Origin: Somniosus microcephalus
Lineage: Eukaryota
Reading direction: 5' to 3'
DNA length: 64,000 bases
NCBI GenBank assembly: GCA_052327205.1
Contig: CM126230.1
Span: 43,896,001-43,960,000, forward strand
In this document: piece after piece, positions 13,472 through 42,714 of the stretch
Layout: each line of letters begins with the position of its first letter
How positions within the stretch are numbered: position 1 is the stretch's first letter
Program-made: the position numbers and the translations under genes
The notes under the pieces: generated by a model
What the model was told of the DNA's origin: nothing
Database searches by the model: none
The model's input: only the letters and a program-made list of their open reading frames with translations

Positions 13472-14223
13472 TCAGTGTCGGGGCTTAAACCGCGCCATGT
13501 ACACACTGCAGTTCCGGCAGTACACCTCGGCAGCATCGATGAACACCAGCTGGCATAAAGCGCACTGATGCCCCCAGGTGGCTAGCTGTGGAGTAGTCTG
13601 TTCCGTCACTGGTCGGCCAGCAGATGGCCGTCTCGTATACACACCAGTATCGCTGGTCCTTGCAGGAGTGCGAGGGGCCAAATGCTTCCTCTCACTGGGC
13701 TGAGGCTGGGTATAAGTTGCCTTCCTCCAATCCTCATCTGGAGGAACATCAAGGCGGACTGGACCTGCAGAGTTGGAGCATGAAGACTTGTGATAAGGGG
13801 ATTTTGGAGGGTCCAAGGTATTTGCCGCGTTGTTGTTTTTTGGAAAAGTGTTCTGGCCAGTGCCAAGCACGGGTCTGTAATGCACAGGAAAACGGTCAGC
13901 ACAACCATAACTATCGGGCACCTCAGTCCTAGTTTGGTGTGGAGGCCTGCTCAATGCGGTTATGCTGGATGGATCTCTGCGAAGTTGCTCCACTTTTCTC
14001 TTGTCTGGCAGCACTGCTCGGATGCCTTGAGCCAGTCTCTGCTTGATGACATTCTTATTCTCGACATGCATCTGGTCTATTCTGCTGGGTCTCTGTCCTT
14101 TACTCAAACTCCTCTGAGAGCGTGGCAGTGTGCCATAGTTCACTGCAACGTTCTGGTAGTTCTCATGGTTGAGAGCTTCACCCCGGTCAAACACAGCCAG
14201 AAATTTTTCGATGTTCTTATCTG
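13472..14223 (-). CDS. USP54: USP54 last coding exon (..IEKFLAVFDRGE..RLDVPPDEDWR..CALC..CRNC..RFKPRH*)
   Basis: ORF 13472..14275; tandem AAG/CAG acceptor (start 14223 or 14220), phase 1; TGA at 13472-13474. Confidence 0.92.
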
Positions 14224-15856
14224 CTTTCACAAGAAACAGAAAAAGGTAATTACTGAGGATTTTGATCAGGGACAAAACTGTATTAACTACACATTCAAAA
14301 ATCTAGCACAAGAACTTCCACACTGGTTCCCCAATGGCCCACTGTAACTTTGGTAGAAACCTTGGAGAAATGGCTGTCCCAACCCAACTTCTGCCGAAGT
14401 TATGGCAGATCATCACAAGAACCCCCAGAGAAATTCCAGCCATAGTCTTCAGCTACACATCAAGAGCTGGAGAGCGAGTGAGCAAGAGGACATTTTGTAT
14501 CCCTACAGATTTCTTCTCAAGTCATGAAAAATATTTTTATATATTAGTGCAAATAATTGTTTTAATGTGTCCTAGCAGACATTTAGCCACGGAATCACTT
14601 GTTACATCTGGCTTAAAGGGTTTGTAACGAAGTTGCCTCTGTCACTGATGCTGTGTGGTGTCCATTACTGCATCAGATACGAGCACAATGTTTCACCTGC
14701 ATTCATAGAATTTACCAATGTTGAGACTGAATAAGGTACCACTGAAGTCCTTCACTTTCACAAGTGGCTTTTTAAATGACATTAATGGCCCTGTAGATCA
14801 GCAACAATCATCACTCGTCTTCAGCACAGGAGACGACTATTCGGCCCATTGTGCCGATACTGGCTCTCTGAAAGAGCTATCCACTTAGTTGTAGTTTCTT
14901 GCCCCTTTGGTGTACCGTTTTAAATTTGTAATTTTCAAATATTTATTCACTTCCTTTTTAGAAGTCATGATTAATTCTGTTTCCACCACTGTTTCGAGAT
15001 GAGCATTTCATGCTCCAACAACTCTGCATTTAAAAAAAAAATTCTAACCACCCCTTCGATCTATTGAGGTTCTTAAATTTATGACTTCTAATTACTGGTT
15101 CAGTGAACAATGAAAATAGTTTTCCTTTATTTATTCATTCATTCATTCACACAATTTTGAACATCTTGATCAGGTCTCTCTTAGCTTCCTCTGTTGGAGT
15201 GAAGAGTGCCCCAGTTTCTTCAGTCTCAACTCAATGAAAGCTTCTCATTTCTGATACCATCTTAGCAACTCTCTTCTGCACCCTCTCTATGGCCATAATG
15301 TCCTGGTATTTTAAAAATTGCTTTACAAGATCCCAATGGTAACAATTTCAAAGTAGGCACAAACAATTTTGATGAGCTGCTATATAACTAACATTGCATC
15401 CATTCACGATGCATCAGATTTAACCCGTTGCAACGTTTTGTTCCTGGTCATTTAATAATTTTAAATATTACTACAATATTAAAACAACAAATGCCATGAA
15501 CCTGTCAGAAATGATAGTGTATTAGCATTTTTCAAATTACTGCTATATGCTGAATCTGAATGTTACAATTATAATGCCTCAGTACCTGGTCAAACTAATG
15601 CTGCCTCTTGCACTTAGTGCCAGTAAACATTAAAACATAGTGTTACGCTGCAAGAAAAAGTTGCCATGTAAAGTAATCTCTTCAATACCATGTTGATGAT
15701 CATTTCATATTTGAAGACCAGCTCAGAAGTAATGATAACAATACAACAATGGAAGGGAAATGAGCCGGACAAGGACAGTCAGTCATGCAACCTTACATAC
15801 GATGGATACGCGTACAGAAAAGGAGATGCAAATGCAAGTCGAGAAGCCAAGATTAC

Positions 15857-17995: not shown

Positions 17996-18112
17996 TTCTT
18001 CTGCTGTATTCTGATTTTAAAAAAGGTTCCCTGCAATGATGCCACTCTTTTCCTTTGGGAAAGTGTCTTTTGGAAGTTAAGACAAGAGATCTCTTGGAGC
18101 ATGTTAATATTT
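17996..18112 (+). repeat. ~116-bp direct repeat, copy 1 (copy 2 at 23513-23628)
   Basis: Near-identical TTCTTCTGCTGTATTCTG...GCATGTTAATATTT at both sites. Confidence 0.95.
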
Positions 18113-18225
18113 TCAGCTTGTCTCTCACTCTGCCAGCGCAATTTACACTTCATCTAGAGCCATCCTTTGTTTCTTAACCTGTCCCATTACCATCTCCTCT
18201 CGCCTTGAATATCTCTTAACATCTC

Positions 18226-18441
18226 TGTGGTAATTATTCTTTATGTTAGTAAGAAGTATTGTGATTGGTTGTTTGTTTCCTGCCTTGGGATATATGCTGT
18301 AATCTCATTGGTAGTTGAGGTCATGTGATTTGTGGTGGCCATCTTAAATTCAGTTCTTTCCAGCCTTTAGTTGGGACTGGGTGTTGAAGATGTGCTACAG
18401 ATGTGCCTTAGATTAGAAAGGCAAATCTATTCTTTATTTCA
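18226..18441 (+). repeat. 5' LTR (216 bp)
   Basis: Differs from the 3' LTR by one substitution, two small indels and one 21-to-8-nt replacement. Confidence 0.95.
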
Positions 18442-18462
18442 ATTTATTAACTTTATGTCAGA

Positions 18463-21400
18463 ATGGAGCGATATCTTCAACCAGAACGATTCAATGCTGA
18501 CCCTAATTCTGCAGGAGTGGATGATAAATGGAAACACTGGTATTGTACATTTAAAAACTTTTTGGGCGTGTTGGATCAAGAGTCTCTAAATAAGCTGAAT
18601 ATGCTGATCAACTACATTGCTCCGGATGTGTATAAGTATATTTTGGACTGTAAAACTTACGAAGTGTCTATTTCTACATTGGAAAAGATTTTTGTTAAAC
18701 CAAAGAATGAGGTATTTGCACGTCACCTTCTATCTACCCGTAGGCAGCAGGTGGGAGAATCTTTGGATACTTATTTACAAGCACTTCGGTGCCTTAGTAT
18801 TAACTGTAATTATAAGGCCGTGACGGCTGAAGAATATAAGGAAGAATCGGTACGGGATGCTTTTATTAATGGATTACTGTCTAGATCAATTCGTCAGCGG
18901 TTGTTAGAAAATAAGACTTTGGATCTTAAGAGTGCTTTTGAGCAAGGTTCTACATTGGATGTGGCTCAGAGAAGTTCGGATTCTTATGCTCTTTTTAATC
19001 GGCCTGTGACTGTGGTTTCGGCAGTTCCGGATGAAAAGGAATTATGTGGACTTAATAGGAGTGGTTTACTAGATTCTGAAACAGTTTCTACTTCAGCGGC
19101 TGTTGCCTCTAGGATTCAGAAGTGTTATTTTTGTGGGAACGTCCGGCACCCTCGTCTGAAGTGTCCTGCTCGGGAGGCTGTGTGTAGTAAATGCGGCAAG
19201 AGAGGTCATTACGCACGTGTGTGTAAATCATCAGGTTCAATTACCTCCTCTGTGACTATTCAGCCTTTAGATAGGGCGTTTATTGCATCAATTTCTGCTG
19301 CATTTGCTCATGGCCTAAACAAAGCTATAGTTACGGCCCAAGTTAATGGGTTGGAAGTGAAGGCCCTTATAGATACGGGCAGTACCGAGAGTTTTATAAG
19401 TCTTCAGTTTGCAAAGGAGAAGCATTTAAAAATTTCGCCTGTTTCCTATCAGGTGTGTATGGCTCAGACGACTCTCACTTCACAAGTAGCTGGTTGTTGC
19501 CTTGTGAAATTGATTCTTCTAGGTAATACGTATACTGATATACGCCTATCTGTTTTGCCTAATCTCTGTGCGGATATTTTGATTGGTCATGATGTGCTTC
19601 AGTTACACGAGTCTCTCAGTCTTTCATTTGGAGGGACTAAGCCACCTTTATCTATTTGTGGATTAACCTCTTTATCCATTTCTCCATTATCACTTTTTTC
19701 CAATTTGATGCCGGATTGTAAGCCAATTGCTACCAAATCAAGAAGGTATAGCAGTCAGGATAGAGAATTTATTAATTCTGAAGTTCAACGTCTCTTATTG
19801 GAAGGAATCATTGAACCTAGTTGTTCGCCTTGGCGGGCACAGGTAGTTGTCACGACTAACGAGAGACATAAGAAACGAATGGTGATAGACTATTCCCAAA
19901 CTATTAATAGGTATACTCAATTAGATGCGTACCCTTTGCCTAAGATTGATGAGCTTATCAATAAAGTATCTCCGTATAAGGTTTTTAGCACTATTGACCT
20001 AAAGAGTGCTTATCATCAGATTCCTATTGTTAAGAAGGATCAACCATATACAGCCTTTGAGGCTGGTGGAAAGCTGTATCAGTTTTGCCGAATACCATTT
20101 GGTGTTACTAATGGTGTTGCTTGTTTTCAACGGGCAATGGATGCTTTTATAAGTGATAACTCTCTCTCTGACACCTTTTCATACTTAGATGACATCACGG
20201 TGTGTGGCAAATCAAGGGTGGAGCATGATTCTAATTCAGAAAGATTCCTTCAAGCTGCGGAAAAAGTTGGTTTAACTTTCAATAAAGAGAAGTGTACCTT
20301 TTCGACCACTGAGGTAAATCTACTGGGGTACATTATCTCGGGAAACAAGATTAAACCAGACCCAGAACGTCTGCGACCATTGATTGATTTACCTTATCCT
20401 ACTAATTCTAAGGCTTTGCAATGAGTTGTTGGACTGTTTTCTTACTATTCTAATTGGATTGCAAATTTTTCACAGAAGATCCGGCCTCTTATTCGGGTTA
20501 CGACATATCCTCTATCATGGGAGGCCAGGACGTGTTTTGATAATTTTAAAAAGGATATCCTTGGAGCAGTTGTGCATTCTATTGATGAGCAGGTTCCTTT
20601 TGTGATCGAGACGGACGCTTCTGATTTTGCAATTGGGGCTACTCTGAACCAAAATGGAAGACCTGTGGCCTTTTTCTCACGTACCTTGAACAATAGTGAA
20701 AAAAGGCATTCTTCAATAGAGAAAGAGGCGTATGCAATAGTAGAAGCACTGCGTAAATGGAGACATTATTTATCGGGACGACATTTTACGTTGGTAACTG
20801 ATCAAAAGTCTGTGTCCTTTATGTTTGATGTCAAACATTTTGGAAAGATTAAGAATGATAAAATAATGAGGTGGAGGATTGAGTTGGCATGTTACCATTT
20901 TGATATAGTTTATCGACCGGGGAAGGATAATGTTGCTGCTGATGCGCTGTCGAGGGCTTATTGTTCTGTGATTCACGGAGATACGCTTATTAATCTTCAT
21001 AATGCCTTATGCCATCCTGGGGTTACGAGGATGATACACTTCGTACGCAGTAAGAATTTGCCCTTTTCAGTTGAAGACGTCAAGCGGATGACTTCATCAT
21101 GTTCTATCTGTGCTCGGTGTAAACCGAATTTCTTTAAGCCTCAACAAGCTCATCTTATAAAGGCTACATCTCCTTTTGAACGTTTGAGCGTCGATTTTAA
21201 GGGGCCTCTTCCTTCAACTACTCAAAACCGATATATATTTACTGTTGTGGATGAGTTTTCAAGGTTCCCTTTTGCTTTTCCTTGCGCAGATGTATCAGCT
21301 GCTACAGTTATCAAATGTCTGACTCAACTTTTTGTCATCTTTGGGATGCCTGCGTATATCCATTCGGATCAGGGAAGTTCTTTTATGTCTTCCCAGTTGA

Positions 21401-22167
21401 AGGAATACCTTCAGAGTCGGGGAATTTCTACTAGCAGAACTACCCTGTACAATCCCCAGGGTAATGGACAGTGCGAATGATACAATGGGGTGATCTGGAA
21501 GGCAGTTATGTTGGCTTTGACATCCCGGAACCTTAAGAATACACAGTGGGAAATGGTACTGCCTGATGCCCTGCATTCCATTAGATCATTGCTTTCAACG
21601 GCTACTAATGTGACCCCCCATGAAAGGCTCTTTAACTATCCGCGGAGATCTACTACGGGATATTCGGTACCTTCATGGCTTACTATGCAAGGACCTGTGC
21701 TGCTTCGACGCCATGTTAGATTGTCAAAATATGATCCTTTAGTGGAGGAGGTGGAGCTGTTGGAGGCAAATTCCCAATATGCTCACATTCGATTCCAAGA
21801 TGGGAAAGAAAGTACCGTTTCAATTAAAGACTTGGCTCCTTGTGGTGGCCAGCCTTCTTCTGAGGATATTAACAATAGTCATGATTCAGATAATGTGGAT
21901 GCTGTTACAAATACTACGAATATTTCCAATCCGACTGCAGATAATTATACTTCTATTAGTCAGCCCTCGATGGATGTTCATGACCGTCCCAGTTTACCTC
22001 CTGATGGGATTTCTAATCCGGAAACCGTTGAAAATCGGGATATGGATAGCCTTCCTGCAGAAGATACTTCTGTCTCTCCTGGTGTGGGAGGGCAAGGAAT
22101 TTCACCAAGGTTAAGAAGGTCGACACGAACAAGATATCCGGTCGACCGATTGAAAATGGACTTTTAA
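18463..22167 (+). pseudogene. Gypsy gag-pol single reading frame with two premature TGA stops (20422-24, 21478-80)
   Basis: ORFs 18463, 20572 and 21490 share one frame. Two Zn knuckles (CYFC..H..C, CSKC..H..C), protease LIDTGS, RT YLDD, RNase H ETDAS, integrase HHCC and D-D-E (VDF, SDQG, CE). Confidence 0.95.
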
Positions 22168-22389
22168 ATTGATAGTAATGTTTTAAAATTGTTGAAATAT
22201 TATATTATATTGTTTTAGTTGAGAGATACTTAATACTTATGTGCAATGTTACTATTTGTTGTTGCTCACTTAGTATTGTGTCATGTTGAATAGTTTTATT
22301 TTGTCTGTGCATAGTTTTAGTTGTAAATAATTAATCATAAATTGTAAAGGCTATTTAGGTTGGAGTATATTTTTAAAAGGAGGGGTGAA

Positions 22390-22612
22390 TGTGGTGATTA
22401 TTCTTTGTTAGTAAGAAGTATTGTGATTGGTTGTTTCCTGCCTTGGGATATATGCTGTAATCTCATTGGTAGTTGAGGTCATGTGATTTGTGGTGGCCAT
22501 CTTAAATTCAGTTCTTTCCAGCCTTTAGTTGGGACTGGGTGTTGAAGATGTGCTACAGGATTTTTAAGTTAATATAGCCTAGATTAGAAAGGCAAATCTA
22601 TTCTTTATTTCA
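22390..22612 (+). repeat. 3' LTR (223 bp)
   Basis: Follows the PPT, ends in CA plus the TSD. Confidence 0.95.
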
Positions 22613-22618
22613 ATCTCT

Positions 22619-23512
22619 CATAGAAATATAGAAGATAGGAGCAGGAGTAGGCCATTCGGCCCCTCAAGCCTGCTCCGCCATTCAGTGCGATCATGGCCGA
22701 TCATCTAAACTCAGTACCCGGTCCCTGCTTTCTCCCCATACCCTTGATCCCTTTAGCCTTGAGAAATATATCCAGCTCCTTCTTGAATATATTTAATGAA
22801 TTGGCCTCAACTGCCTTCTGTGGTAGAGAATTCCACAGGTTCACCACTCTCTGGGTGAAGAAATTCCTCCTCATCTCTGTCCTAAATGGCTTACCCCTTA
22901 CCTTTAGACTATGACCCCTGGTTCTGGACTCCCCCACCATCGGGAACATCCTTCCTGCATCTAGTCTGTCTAGTCCTGTTAGAATTTTATAAGTTTCAAT
23001 GAGATCCCCTCTCATTCTTCTAAACTCCAGCGAGTATAAGCCCAATCGACCCAATCTCTCCTCATACGTCTGGTGAATCTTCACTGTACTCCCTCCATGG
23101 CAAGAACATCCTTCCTCAGATAAGGCGACCAAAACGGCACACAATACTCAAGGTGTGGTCTCACCAAGGCCCTGTACAACTGCAGCAAGACATCCTTGTT
23201 CCTGTACTCGAATCCTCTCGCTATGAAGACCAACATACCATTTGCCTTCTTAACCGCCTGCTGCACCTGCATGCTTACCTTCAGCGACTGGTGCACAAGG
23301 ACACCCAGGTCTCGTACTTCCCCTTCTCCCAATCTATTGCCGTTCAGATAATAATCTGCCTTCCTGTTTTTGCCACCAAAGTGGATAACCTCGCATTTAT
23401 CCACATTATACTGCATCTGCCATATCACCCAACCTGTCCAAATCATACTGGAGTTTCTCAGCATCCTCCTCACAGCACACCCCCCCCACCCAGCTTTGTG
23501 TCGTCTGCAAAC
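22619..23512 (-). mobile_element. CR1 LINE, 5'-truncated, young, with internal deletions
   Basis: ORFs 23081..23473 and 22701..23144 encode the CR1 RT C-terminus (WQMQYNVDKCEVIHFG, LVRPHLEYC, FFTQRVVNLWNSLP); TTTCTATG-type tail at 22619. Confidence 0.93.
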
Positions 23513-23583
23513 TTCTTCTGCTGTATTCTGATTAAAAAAAGGTTCCCTGCAATGATGCCACGCTTTTCCTTTGGGAAAGTGTC

Positions 23584-24113
23584 TTTTGGAAGTTAAGACA
23601 AGAGATCTCTTGGAGCATGTTAATATTTGTGGGATTCCCCAACACAGTAAAGTTTTAAAACCGTTGCTCTAACTTAACTAAGCCTAACTTTACTTGATCT
23701 GTAACTAATCATGAGCAGGCTGCTAAACATATTTTGAGTCGAAATGAAACCCTTTAGAACATTACATCCTTCCATCGCGTAAGAGGTACGTAGACTTGAA
23801 TGTACAGTTCAAATTCTGCCTCCACATACACGCTGTAGTCTTGCAACACAGTGTCTACAGAAAGAATGCATTACTTTACTCTGCAAACCTGCCGGGCCAA
23901 TCTGGTTTGGTGCCATTTTCAGCTTGCCAATCGAGGAATTTTTCCAGAGGGGAACATACCACTGCCGTAAATTTTACACTTTAATCTCAACAGTATTATA
24001 AACTCACTACAATATTTATCTTCAAACTAATGTCTGAGATTAAACTTTACTGTGTTGGGGAATCCCACAAATATTAACATGCTCCAAGAGATCTCTTGTC
24101 TTAACTTCCAAAA
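23584..24113. repeat. Perfect 72-bp inverted repeat (23584-23655 and 24042-24113), 386-bp spacer
   Basis: Base-by-base reverse-complement match. Confidence 0.95.
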
Positions 24114-25620: not shown

Positions 25621-26098
25621 ATGGAGATTGATGAATCAAGAAGAAGAACATAAGAAATAGGAGCAGGAGTAGGCCAATCGGCCCCTCGAGCCTGCTCCGC
25701 CATTCAATAAGATCATGGCTGATCTGATCCTAACCGCCAATCTTCTTTAGTTTAGTCTATTTTCATTTAAACAATCCGCAAATGACTTGGAATTAATGAG
25801 CCAGACAGCATGAGGGTGCAAAGTTCTAAGTAGATATGATCATTAACCCAAGATGTCTTAGTGGTGACACTTTAATCGAGCACGGTGATTGATCGTCCCT
25901 GCACAGTCAAGCTGACGTACTCCTCCCAGCAAACTCCCCTGGTTCCATCTAAATCTCACCGCTTGAACAAAACATTCAACAACTGAGCAATTTGTCCTTA
26001 ATTACTGAACATCATAAATAATACATTCGCATTTCGGTACACTTTCCAAAAAATTGGAAATGCTATTACTTGCTTATCGCGCGTGCCGATCCTCTCAC

Positions 26099-27624
26099 CT
26101 GGTTTCGCGCTACTTTGTCTGGTGGCGTTCTCAGCCAGCCGTCTCCCTGGTGAATATCTGCTACTCTCAGAAGCCTGCAGACTTGCTTGATACAGGGACT
26201 CCAGCTCTGAAAACTCCAGCTCTATATCCTGATCTTTACTATTAATCGGCTGCACCTGTTGGTTTCCATGATTGTGGGTATTATTTTCTTGACTGGACAG
26301 ATTACCATGCAGGTGTTGCTGTTCAACATTTTTGTAATCTGGTGGAGACGTGCAATGTTTTCTAACACCGTCAATCCATCGGTCTACAGGCACAGAAGCA
26401 GTACTAACAGAAAGCTCATTTTGCTGCCTCACTGGTTCAGGGGTTTTGCTGGAACAGGTTTCTCTGAAAAATGATTGGACAGCATTTTGGTATCTTTGTC
26501 CATATGTCTCATCTGTTTGAGGGGCAGGTGAAAACTCTGACCCTCTGGAGTGACTGTTTACGTCTCTTGTAACAGCATCAGTCTTTGCTCTGTAAGTGGG
26601 AGCAGATGGAGAAACAGGCACCTCAGCTTTACAATCCAAAGGTCTGTGTGAAACCTGGGGAGAATATAAGCTATCAGAAGACCGCTTTGCGCTGCCCAAC
26701 TGATCCTTGTCTTGGAGAACCCCCATCTTTTGATGCGACGTCAGAGGTAGCTGGGATACTTCCTGATCAAATTTCTTTGGTAGAAAATTCGAACATGCAC
26801 TTTTATAATTACCTTCATGATTTCCCTGGCCCAACTTGACATTTAGTCTTTGAAACTGTGCGGTCGTTGACTTTACATTAACCCCATCAACTGTGGTCTT
26901 GGACTTGGGTGAATGGGCACTGTCAATCTCTGCCGAGTTCAATTCCAAATTCAAATCACTTTTGTGTGATTGATAAGTAGCAGATTGTACAGGGGACCAG
27001 TTCAAGCTTGTGGAAGACAAAGTTGTACATGGAGAGATTTTGGTATCAGTTGTGTTGAACTGCCTTGAATTGCAATATAAAGAAGAATGGGAATTGCTGT
27101 TTGAATAGACATCTGTTTCATCCTTTTGTGTTAACACTTGCACGTGGGGAGATGGTGATGGAAACGTGTGGCTCATGTTTCCGTACTCAGCCGTAAGCAA
27201 CGGCAAGGAGCCATATTTGCTCATTTTCTGTTTATGGTTGAGTGCTGAACAGTCCGACTCATCCTTCTCTTCCACTGGCTCATCAATATTCTTCACCTGA
27301 CGTTTGGGCATTGTGCCAGTTACACATTTCTCCTCCACCTTCTCCCCAGGGAAAAAAGCTGGACCCCAATTGCAGTTGTGGGGAGATGGAAGCTCGGTGG
27401 TATATCTGGCAGATTGGCTTCTGAACTGAAACAAAACCAATGAAGCGGAAGCTTGGCCATGCGGCTCCGAGTGAGGATTGTGGAACCTGGGTGCATGTTG
27501 GGCGTGTAGTTGGTGATGGGAGGATGAGTGGACCAGGGAAGATTTGGGCCTGTGATCTGGCTCGCTGATGGGTTCCATTACTCTCTCTGACGCTAACAGT
27601 ACTTTGACCTGGCTAGCCTGCACA
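26099..27624 (-). CDS. USP54: USP54 large exon (Ser/Pro-rich, probably disordered; ends ...SELESLYQASLQAS...SAKP)
   Basis: cag|T ... G|gtgaga, 1526 nt, phase 2-1; ORF 25998..27716. Confidence 0.92.
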
Positions 27625-28325
27625 CTGAAATAAAAAATGTGTGTGTTATTTCTGAAGATTAACAGTGGAAACAATTCAATGCCAGAAAACACATATTGCA
27701 TGCTCCTCTCTACCAATAGATACGAGGTTTTAATTAAACGCTACATTTAAAACCGTACATCAGCATTTTGTTATTTATTTCAGAAAGTATAATTTTGTAT
27801 TCCACTTACTGTCCCACCTAAGGAACTGCTGAGAGGCACGGTGGAAAAGCTGGGAATCAACTCATTGTTAGAATTCATGAAAAAAATAAGATTTTGTACA
27901 TCCGCTCTACAGTAGAATCTGCATATTTCTAAATATCTCATGGAAATGTAATGTTCAAGGGGCTAGAAATTAAAATGAATCTCAAAAGGAGTTACCAACA
28001 GCACACAGACCTTCACCCAAGTTAATCAAATTTATGGAAGCATGACTAATACTTGCTCCATTACAATTCTGATCATAAAGAACAGTCTCATTTAATTCAG
28101 TGCAAGTGACATACTATCTCATAGCAGTTCTGTATATTTCTTTTTAAAAAAGGCACCATGAGAAAGTTTTCAAAATAATTTTAAATGGTTACTGAACATT
28201 TTGTCCAACAACGACAAGCTCATTTTCTATAAAACAAAAGGTCTTATTTTCAAAGCATTATTTGCTGTATCAATGCTCAAATGGCTTCTATCTGACGTTT
28301 GTCCCTCTTAATCCTCAGATACTAC

Positions 28326-41082: not shown

Positions 41083-41857
41083 CTTTAAAAAGAGCAGGAC
41101 ACACAGAGCCTCAGAGAAATCGACATTTACTGCAAGGCACCGGAGTGCCCACTGAGACTGACAGATTATATCAATTCCCACAGGTATATTGGAGGAAAGT
41201 CCAAAGGGAAATTAACTGAGGTAGACAGGGATGTCATCTCGCAATGAAGGATGGATTGCAGGCATAAAGAGGAGTTTGCAGTATTTTTATGATAATCGCT
41301 GTTGTGTCTATCATGTATTTAGTTTGCACATCTGGAGCAATGTTTATAATTGATATCAAATTAATTAAATGGTTTGTAGACAAACACACACTAACCAAAA
41401 TTATCTGCTTTTGCCAATATATTTACTGCAGAAAATAAAAAATAAATTGTACTTCAATCCTAACTGCCAGTCAAAGAATAAATGTACGTTAGTACAGCAA
41501 GAATCCCATGGTGCTGTTACCATTGTTTCTGCTACTACTGAACATATAGCCCACACTGGATAGGGCGGAGGCGAGGCAAGGCGGAGCGGATTGGGCGGTG
41601 GATTGGGCTGTGGCGAGGCGGATTGGGCGGTACACTACACTCGGTCAAGCTCACTGGATTTCATTTTCATTTCCCCCTTAAAAATATTGATATTGGAAAA
41701 AATATATACACTAGAAACTTTGAAAGTTACTTGGTACAAATGGAGGCAATTCTTGAACTTTCATGTATCTGACATACAATATAAAGCAAAATTAAATTCA
41801 TGACTCCCTGCTCTGACAGCGAGTAAGAAATGCTAAGTAATCAGACAACTAATTTAC

Positions 41858-42548
41858 CTGAAAGGATTGGCACTGGAGTTGTGCACTCCACCTGGTATCC
41901 CATCAGTAACCGAAGTATCCAAACTGACTGGACTGTTGCTGTTGCGCTCACTGCTCTCGTAGCCAGACTCCATTCTCTGAATAAAACGTTCACTTTCTCC
42001 CAGACTGTGGACCCCCGTTTGTTGCATACTTTTACCAGGATACCCAGCCTTCTCGTATCTGTCATTATTTATCTGTACGCCTTTTCCTTCATTCTTTGTA
42101 TTGTCTAGTGTCAAAGGAGCACCTCCAACACCTACTGAACTCTCAGCCTTATTGTGGTTCAAATCTTTAATGCCATCCTCAGTCGTCGTATTCATCTGTG
42201 TGTAACATGCAATTCTCCTTTTCTCTTTCGTGAAAATACTGTCAATATTGAGGACCTCCCGTTTGGGTTTCCACAAGTAGGTCTTTGACCTGCTCGATGA
42301 GCTCGATTTAGATTCACTGCTGGTGCTTTCTATTTCCCAGTCTCGTGCCCGGCCACCTGACATTCGGAAGCTGCTATTATCTACAGGGTCCACCACCTTG
42401 GCTGGAATGGGTTTGTTGTTACTCTGGTCTTGGTTATGTAAAGGTCGGTTATGAATAATGTTGCTCATCGTTTCTCTGAAGTCCTTTAATCTACTAGTAG
42501 CAGGTTTCGGTCCAGTTCTCGGGGCTTGTTTCTCTTTCAACGTTTCGC
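41858..42548 (-). CDS. USP54: USP54 exon: (G)ETLKEKQAPR...RMESGYESSERNSNSPVSLD...SANPF(R)
   Basis: tag|GC ... AG|gtaaat, 691 nt, phase 1-2; ORF 41854..42621. Confidence 0.95.
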
Positions 42549-42714
42549 CTACAATTTCGGACATGAAAGATACAAAGACTAAAGTGTGCACAAGAGCAGC
42601 AACTCCACTATTCACGAGCACCCATCACCCTTCACCGCCGCACCCGTACCAACCTGCACTTCCAAGTTCATGGCACTTTCACAACAGGGGCGCTAGATAA
42701 ATTCCTTTCCTCAC

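Follow-up and report, generated by a model that had tools for sequence, protein, structure and literature searches.

The retrotransposon described here belongs to a Ty3/Gypsy family that very probably primes reverse transcription with a segment of its own RNA, in a Tf1-like manner and with putative RNA start, cleavage and poly(A) sites. The decisive evidence for the predicted pairing between this segment, the arm, and the primer-binding site is its conservation within the family together with its covariation across families. The new part of the finding is a population of fold-back products and a mutational hot spot at base 12 behind the LTR spacer, both read directly from the genome. To our knowledge, experimental proof of self-priming comes mainly from yeast Tf1, and a second, distant and widespread animal lineage following the 11-nt rule would mean either convergence or a very old origin. 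We lean slightly against, while taking seriously, a wider reading in which a metazoan-wide Gypsy clade would self-prime independently of Tf1/sushi, with an 11-nt primer that is also the poly(A)-signal segment and with snap-back both seeding integrase-inserted palindromes and lengthening the site.

Structure of the element and proposed priming

The window, a stretch of 64,000 nt from Somniosus microcephalus (contig CM126230.1, positions 43,896,001 to 43,960,000 of the forward strand), holds one complete Ty3/Gypsy LTR retrotransposon, recognizable by its TG..CA LTRs, target duplication, polypurine tract and PR-RT-RH-IN order; all its features lie on the plus strand. The target-site duplication ATCTC, identified in the sequence, stands on the left at 18221–18225 and on the right at 22613–22617. 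It encloses a 5' LTR of 216 nt (18226–18441, TG..CA, delimited by sequence and LTR alignment), which is devoid of the pairing arm, and a 3' LTR of 223 nt (22390–22612). Between the LTRs are a single-frame gag-pol (18463–22167) encoding protease, RT, RNase H and integrase and interrupted by in-frame stops at 20422–20424 and 21478–21480, and a polypurine tract at 22375–22389. Two CX2CX4HX4C zinc knuckles are seen in the translation of 19123–19224, the second with a weak zf-CCHC match. The best solved-structure match of the element is the Ty3 RT, and no match to a Tf2-type SH3 domain or chromodomain at the integrase C-terminus was found in the C-terminal frame of the window or in any of the four full-length relatives (4/4).

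A first-pass annotation of this DNA had pointed out that no TGG-type primer site follows the 5' LTR, that the gag ATG lies a mere 21 nt downstream and that an 11-nt site matches the 3' LTR at ten positions, and had proposed self-priming through the element's own LTR. Each of these observations was reproduced, and the proposal is now supported by family conservation, covariation and fold-back footprints. Behind the 5' LTR of the window element there is no TGG-type site, and the gag ATG at 18463 is 21 nt from that LTR. A spacer of one base (18442) separates the LTR from the predicted primer-binding site TTTATTAACTT (18443–18453), an 11-nt segment complementary to the element's own LTR. Its partner, the pairing arm AAGTTAATATA and predicted self-primer, lies in the 3' LTR at 22566–22576 and carries one mismatch in this copy (10/11).

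In the 5' LTR, four bases at 18401–18404 replace 18 nt of the sister copies, arm included, and the right edge of this lesion is the 3' boundary of the arm. Because its 5' LTR lost the arm, the window copy is unable to form the arm–site stem; with stops in gag-pol and the arm missing, it is dead, for priming too. The lesion ends at the predicted cleavage point and appears templated from a few bases upstream, and may itself be a reverse-transcription error.

In Tf1, the first 11 bases are described as pairing with the primer site, with RNase H cutting between bases 11 and 12 (PMC7175516). By analogy, the RNA of the present family would begin with the arm itself, at nt 184 of an LTR of 230 nt. 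The arm would then pair with the site beyond the one-base spacer, as complementarity and covariation suggest, enclosing a loop of 37 nt whose first part is a GCCT/AGGC helix. The element's own RNase H would cut at the 3' end of the arm, as in Tf1, leaving the spacer and U5 to be copied by RT.

Pairing within the family and across relatives

A family search of the 6.4 Gb host genome returned 1787 candidates, from which 30 loci were fetched and 26 parsed. Arm and site pair at 11/11 positions in the 5' LTR of 24 of these, the remaining two being one mismatched locus and the window copy; in a wider parse, perfect 11/11 arms were present in 48 of 50 sister copies. A junction pattern in which the primer site was left free matched 799 junctions in the host genome, and among the matches listed, 97 of 100 had the exact 11-mer and none of the 100 had a TGG start. 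A tRNA site that has merely decayed in the window copy, one of the outcomes the first-pass annotation had named as fatal to its proposal, is thus not what the family shows. Pairing is likewise kept in 29 of 30 loci of a second subfamily (335 matches), and a protein search of the host genome gave 39 matches that by length and identity resemble the same family. The end branches of the copy tree measure about 0.5%, indicating a recent burst of the family. A published prediction rule for self-priming looks for an LTR match of at least 10 bp starting 0–5 bp behind the 5' LTR (PMC6317226); by this rule the family would be predicted to self-prime, and the window copy, judged by its own 5' LTR, would not.

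Full-length relatives with Gag identities of 41–55% were found in a fluke, an aphid, a tunicate and an isopod, and RT relatives in an ant, a damselfly, a sea slug, a soft coral, a nematode and a ray; the viral contigs searched contained no relatives of the element. Of 80 metagenome loci, 45 included the start of gag, and in 40 the DNA ahead of it was sufficiently long; these 40 together with one of our own copies form 23 families. A perfect stem of 11–19 bp stands at the same place in 20 of the 23, a result reached by 0 of 60 shuffles per locus, and the stems of the other three are 5, 8 and 9 bp long. The register alignment comprises 21 families, with L080 and L108 dropped and L092 out of register through an indel. 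In four related families, LTR pairs set the LTR boundary independently of the stem; in most other relatives the boundary was placed by the CA motif beside the stem, a partly circular criterion, and a few samples account for many of the loci.

The 21 aligned families have 21 different 11-mers at the site. On average, each site pairs with its own arm at 10.5 of 11 positions and with the arms of other families at 6.8, and none of 420 arm swaps between families reaches 11 pairs. Positions 5, 7, 8 and 9 of the stem show three or four pair types. The pairing is preserved through matched changes across families, one of the two points on which the first-pass annotation had made its proposal hinge. Pairing continues past 11 nt in most relatives (18/21 at position 12, 19/21 at 13 and 14/21 at 14–16), so that the primer is perhaps not 11 nt long everywhere, which, from sequence alone, argues against a sharp 11-nt rule.

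Two further suggestions of that annotation stood in part. It had seen a poly(A) signal overlapping the arm, and 12 of 21 families indeed have AATAAA or ATTAAA at the end of the arm, but the other nine do not; the conserved feature of the arm end is AAA followed by GCC-like letters. It had also drawn attention to a TAGATT/AATCTA hairpin, which is present at 18409–18429 (strands 18409–18414 and 18424–18429) but is probably the wrong helix, and was rejected as the conserved one: two older variants lose it yet keep GCCT/AGGC. The helix conserved across families, GCCT/AGGY, follows right after the arm and has at least 4 bp in 16 of 20 families, where 6.2 would be expected; in the window it takes the form GCCT/AGGC and occupies 18405–18422, immediately 3' of the arm position.

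Fold-back products and the predicted primer boundary

A search for junctions departing from the normal sequence after the 11-mer yielded 37 non-standard junctions, 26 of which continue as the reverse complement of the LTR, starting exactly at the 3' end of the arm. Three pairs among these share flanks, leaving 23 independent events. Where both ends were checked, a 5-bp target duplication was present in nine of ten, the tenth falling short of the LTR start and having none. The nine comprise five stand-alone 425-bp insertions with two U3 ends, one head-to-head LTR join and three fold-backs attached to whole elements. Because of these duplications, the fold-backs likely arose as cDNA and were inserted by integrase. 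Their extensions are of many lengths, and a good number reach precisely LTR base 1, in keeping with snap-back of the plus-strand strong-stop DNA.

Under the proposed mechanism, a primer copy would form the end of plus-strand strong-stop DNA; being complementary to the arm of the same strand, it would occasionally snap back and be extended. Fold-back insertions and the base-12 hot spot are both seen in the genome, and snap-back is their putative origin; repeated short snap-backs could also have produced the pairing of 13–19 nt found in many relatives. In Tf1, about half of the cDNA still has the copied site at its 3' end in single-stranded form, and RT adds untemplated bases (PMC11042837); both properties fit the footprints of the present family.

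Several molecules bear on where the plus strand ends. L142 consists of a 3' LTR, the spacer and exactly 11 nt, followed by a C and flank; it has no target duplication, and its C possibly belongs to the flank. The head-to-head join L145/L146 ends at nt 11. In L163, a single molecule, copying stops at LTR nt 184 and a C is added, which by itself proves little because a similar product, L153, stops at nt 32. In 21 of 799 copies the T at base 12 is replaced by A, where 0.5 would be expected, and no copy has C or G there. The 21 changes are unclustered on the copy tree, a weak, star-like tree that requires no more than two origins. From the boundary molecules and base 12 we infer that the plus strand ends at nt 11–12 of the site, where an arm-derived primer would place it, and the folded-back copies likely mark the primer edge. 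A genome search for LTRs cut at the arm found none with three non-T bases before it and seven matches with one G or C before it; one of the latter (L211, identical to L163) starts at the arm, and the other six are point changes or small rearrangements. A sushi-like family of the same genome, tested over an unspecified number of copies, gave no match to the fold-back pattern, which leaves the footprint without a link to a proven self-primer. The fold-back insertions, like the hot spot at base 12, offer a genome-only readout of primer boundaries, and together they suggest one route by which LTR elements may give rise to short palindromic insertions with target duplications.

These products also bear on a self-priming variant in which the primer is longer or derived from the 3' repeat, the RNA starting upstream of the arm, or the 3'-repeat arm pairing, with only the last 11 nt paired. 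Inverted extensions of many lengths would suit such a primer, but the extensions often end at LTR base 1 and carry a target duplication, as a DNA template starting at U3 would explain. Relatives with up to 19 nt paired would suit it as well, yet three products and the base-12 hot spot set the plus-strand end at nt 11–12, and the register is fixed, with A at arm base −11 in 13 of 21 families and G at base −10 in 18 of 21. The promoter and RNA data speak for this variant and against the main reading: unlike the sushi-like control, the family has no TATA-like box at the expected distance, 25–30 nt upstream of the arm, and RNA reads from two runs show transcription across the LTR, U3 included, without a start pile. 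In the rows examined of two ordinary RNA libraries, spanning thousands of copies, read starts did not pile up at the arm, nor was there a poly(A) pile, which is a weak test. Taken together, we consider a longer or 3'-derived primer unlikely.

Alternative roles and alternative primers

The stem might instead serve mainly to mask the poly(A) signal of the 5' LTR, with priming by something else. The hexamers of the 12 families and a pairing partner found only behind the 5' LTR would both make sense if this were so, but most of the nine families without a hexamer still pair, the one-base spacer is fixed and no TGG stands at the LTR end in any of the 21 families. We therefore regard masking as a very improbable main role, although it may be a second function of the stem.

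That a tRNA fragment or another host small RNA primes, the LTR match being a by-product of snap-back conversion, strikes us as extremely improbable. Snap-back does rewrite bases behind the site; however, since it copies the LTR into the site, a match to an outside RNA would be destroyed, and the 11-mers of the 21 families each fit their own LTR. The host tRNA search found 63 genes, three loci of which were typed, as Lys and Cys, and the longest complement of the site is 5 nt to tRNA-Lys and 4 nt to tRNA-Cys; the screen covered these two only, which leaves this explanation some room, but Rfam gave no match in 18100–18700. Control exerted through tRNA-derived small RNAs would presumably not reach a lineage that primes itself.

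In one intact sister copy, the arm–site stem is better than in 60 of 60 dinucleotide shuffles, although this copy does not fold with unusual total energy (z −1.2; 22 of 200 shuffles do equally well). A chance match of two A/T-rich 11-mers would accord with such single-copy z-scores, which range from −1.2 to −1.8 for an A/U-rich stem, but is refuted by the covariation, and also opposed by the family conservation (97/100 listed junctions, 48/50 copies) and the shuffles, and retains next to no probability.

Relationship to known self-priming elements

Self-priming has been proposed for Tj1, Tf1/sushi, Tcn1 and TAR Copia elements (PMC4600332, PMC6317226). Tf1 and Tf2 of Schizosaccharomyces pombe and Tj1 of S. 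japonicus likewise have no tRNA site and carry an 11-nt LTR-complementary site. The family described here differs from them in having two zinc knuckles and no Tf2-type SH3 or chromodomain match, and in the position of its arm, only 47 nt from the LTR end and often overlapping a poly(A)-type hexamer; its cleavage point and RNA start are, moreover, putative.

Vertebrate Tf1/sushi chromoviruses, represented in the same genome by elements that we presumptively call sushi-like after their Pfam SH3_Tf2-1 domain, share the one-base spacer and the 11-nt site. Both were found in 5 of 10 SH3_Tf2-1 loci, the rest having no usable LTR pair, and in three further sushi-like loci. The sushi-like arm, unlike ours, lies about 25 nt behind a TATA box and about 160 nt from the LTR end. 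Two other Gypsy lineages of the host genome carry TGG sites, and the window RT is 29–33% identical to those of the sushi-like and TGG-site lineages. In the RT tree, the clade of the element (support 100/99) stands apart from the SH3_Tf2-1 elements of the genome, Tf1 itself not being in the tree. The best tree places the two TGG-site lineages between this clade and the sushi-like group, across a long, fully supported branch; a tree uniting the self-primers in one clade survives the AU test (p=0.057). The tree thus suggests that self-priming may have originated separately from that of Tf1/sushi. Judged by its RT grouping and the integrase-tail results, the element is not assigned to Tf1/sushi.

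Other Gypsy elements came to light during this work. L231/L266 has a TGG-type site, and its integrase-tail match recurs three times at a spacing of 4939 nt. L225/L264 and L236 represent a lineage with the integrase-tail domain upstream of RT, an order that would be Gmr1-like; in L225, two bases separate the LTR from a TGG site.

For Tcn1 chromoviruses and for the Copia elements TAR, Houba and Osr-1, self-priming was predicted by the same LTR-match rule that would single out the present family (PMC6317226); they belong to other lineages and hosts, and for them there is prediction only.

The Mag/SURL group, to which the first-pass annotation had likened the element, has marine and other animal hosts in common with our family. 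Two CCHC knuckles in Gag are a Mag trait, and the Gag described here has two. Compared by eye with the motifs in Table 3 of PMC3601003, the LTR ends fit neither Mag A nor Mag C; the 5' end fits the CsRN1 motif, and the 3' end does not. Mag A LTRs are characterized in the same source by a clear AATAAA and no conserved TATA (PMC3601003).

A search of published papers, with Repbase and GyDB outside its scope, turned up no account of snap-back LTR insertions and none of self-priming in this clade. Repbase Reports of 2005 reportedly presented "self-primed Gypsy" families from the purple sea urchin; if so, self-priming had been suggested earlier for Gypsy families of marine invertebrates, possibly those of this very clade.

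Genomic surroundings and related insertions

Long open stretches on the minus strand of the window, at 13472–14302, 25998–27740 and 41854–42624, resemble exons of a host gene, presumably one encoding a USP53/USP54-type protein, in which case the element would sit in an intron in the opposite orientation. A near-identical direct repeat of 97 nt flanks the element (18016–18112 and 23532–23628), and a perfect inverted repeat of 72 nt is found at 23584–23655 and 24042–24113; together these are possibly a small non-autonomous DNA element. A LINE-like reverse-transcriptase fragment on the minus strand (22618–23700) adjoins the 3' LTR.

Elsewhere in the genome, junctions of the family occur 4175 nt apart (C1:271062080 and 271066255) and 5065 nt apart (C2:380918735–380928899); by analogy with integrase-independent Tf1 insertion, these closely spaced junctions are possibly tandem elements with a shared LTR. 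In an older subfamily (L171, L177, L208–L210 and L214), the LTR begins with a duplicated head of 30–45 nt, and the same joint is seen in RNA reads.
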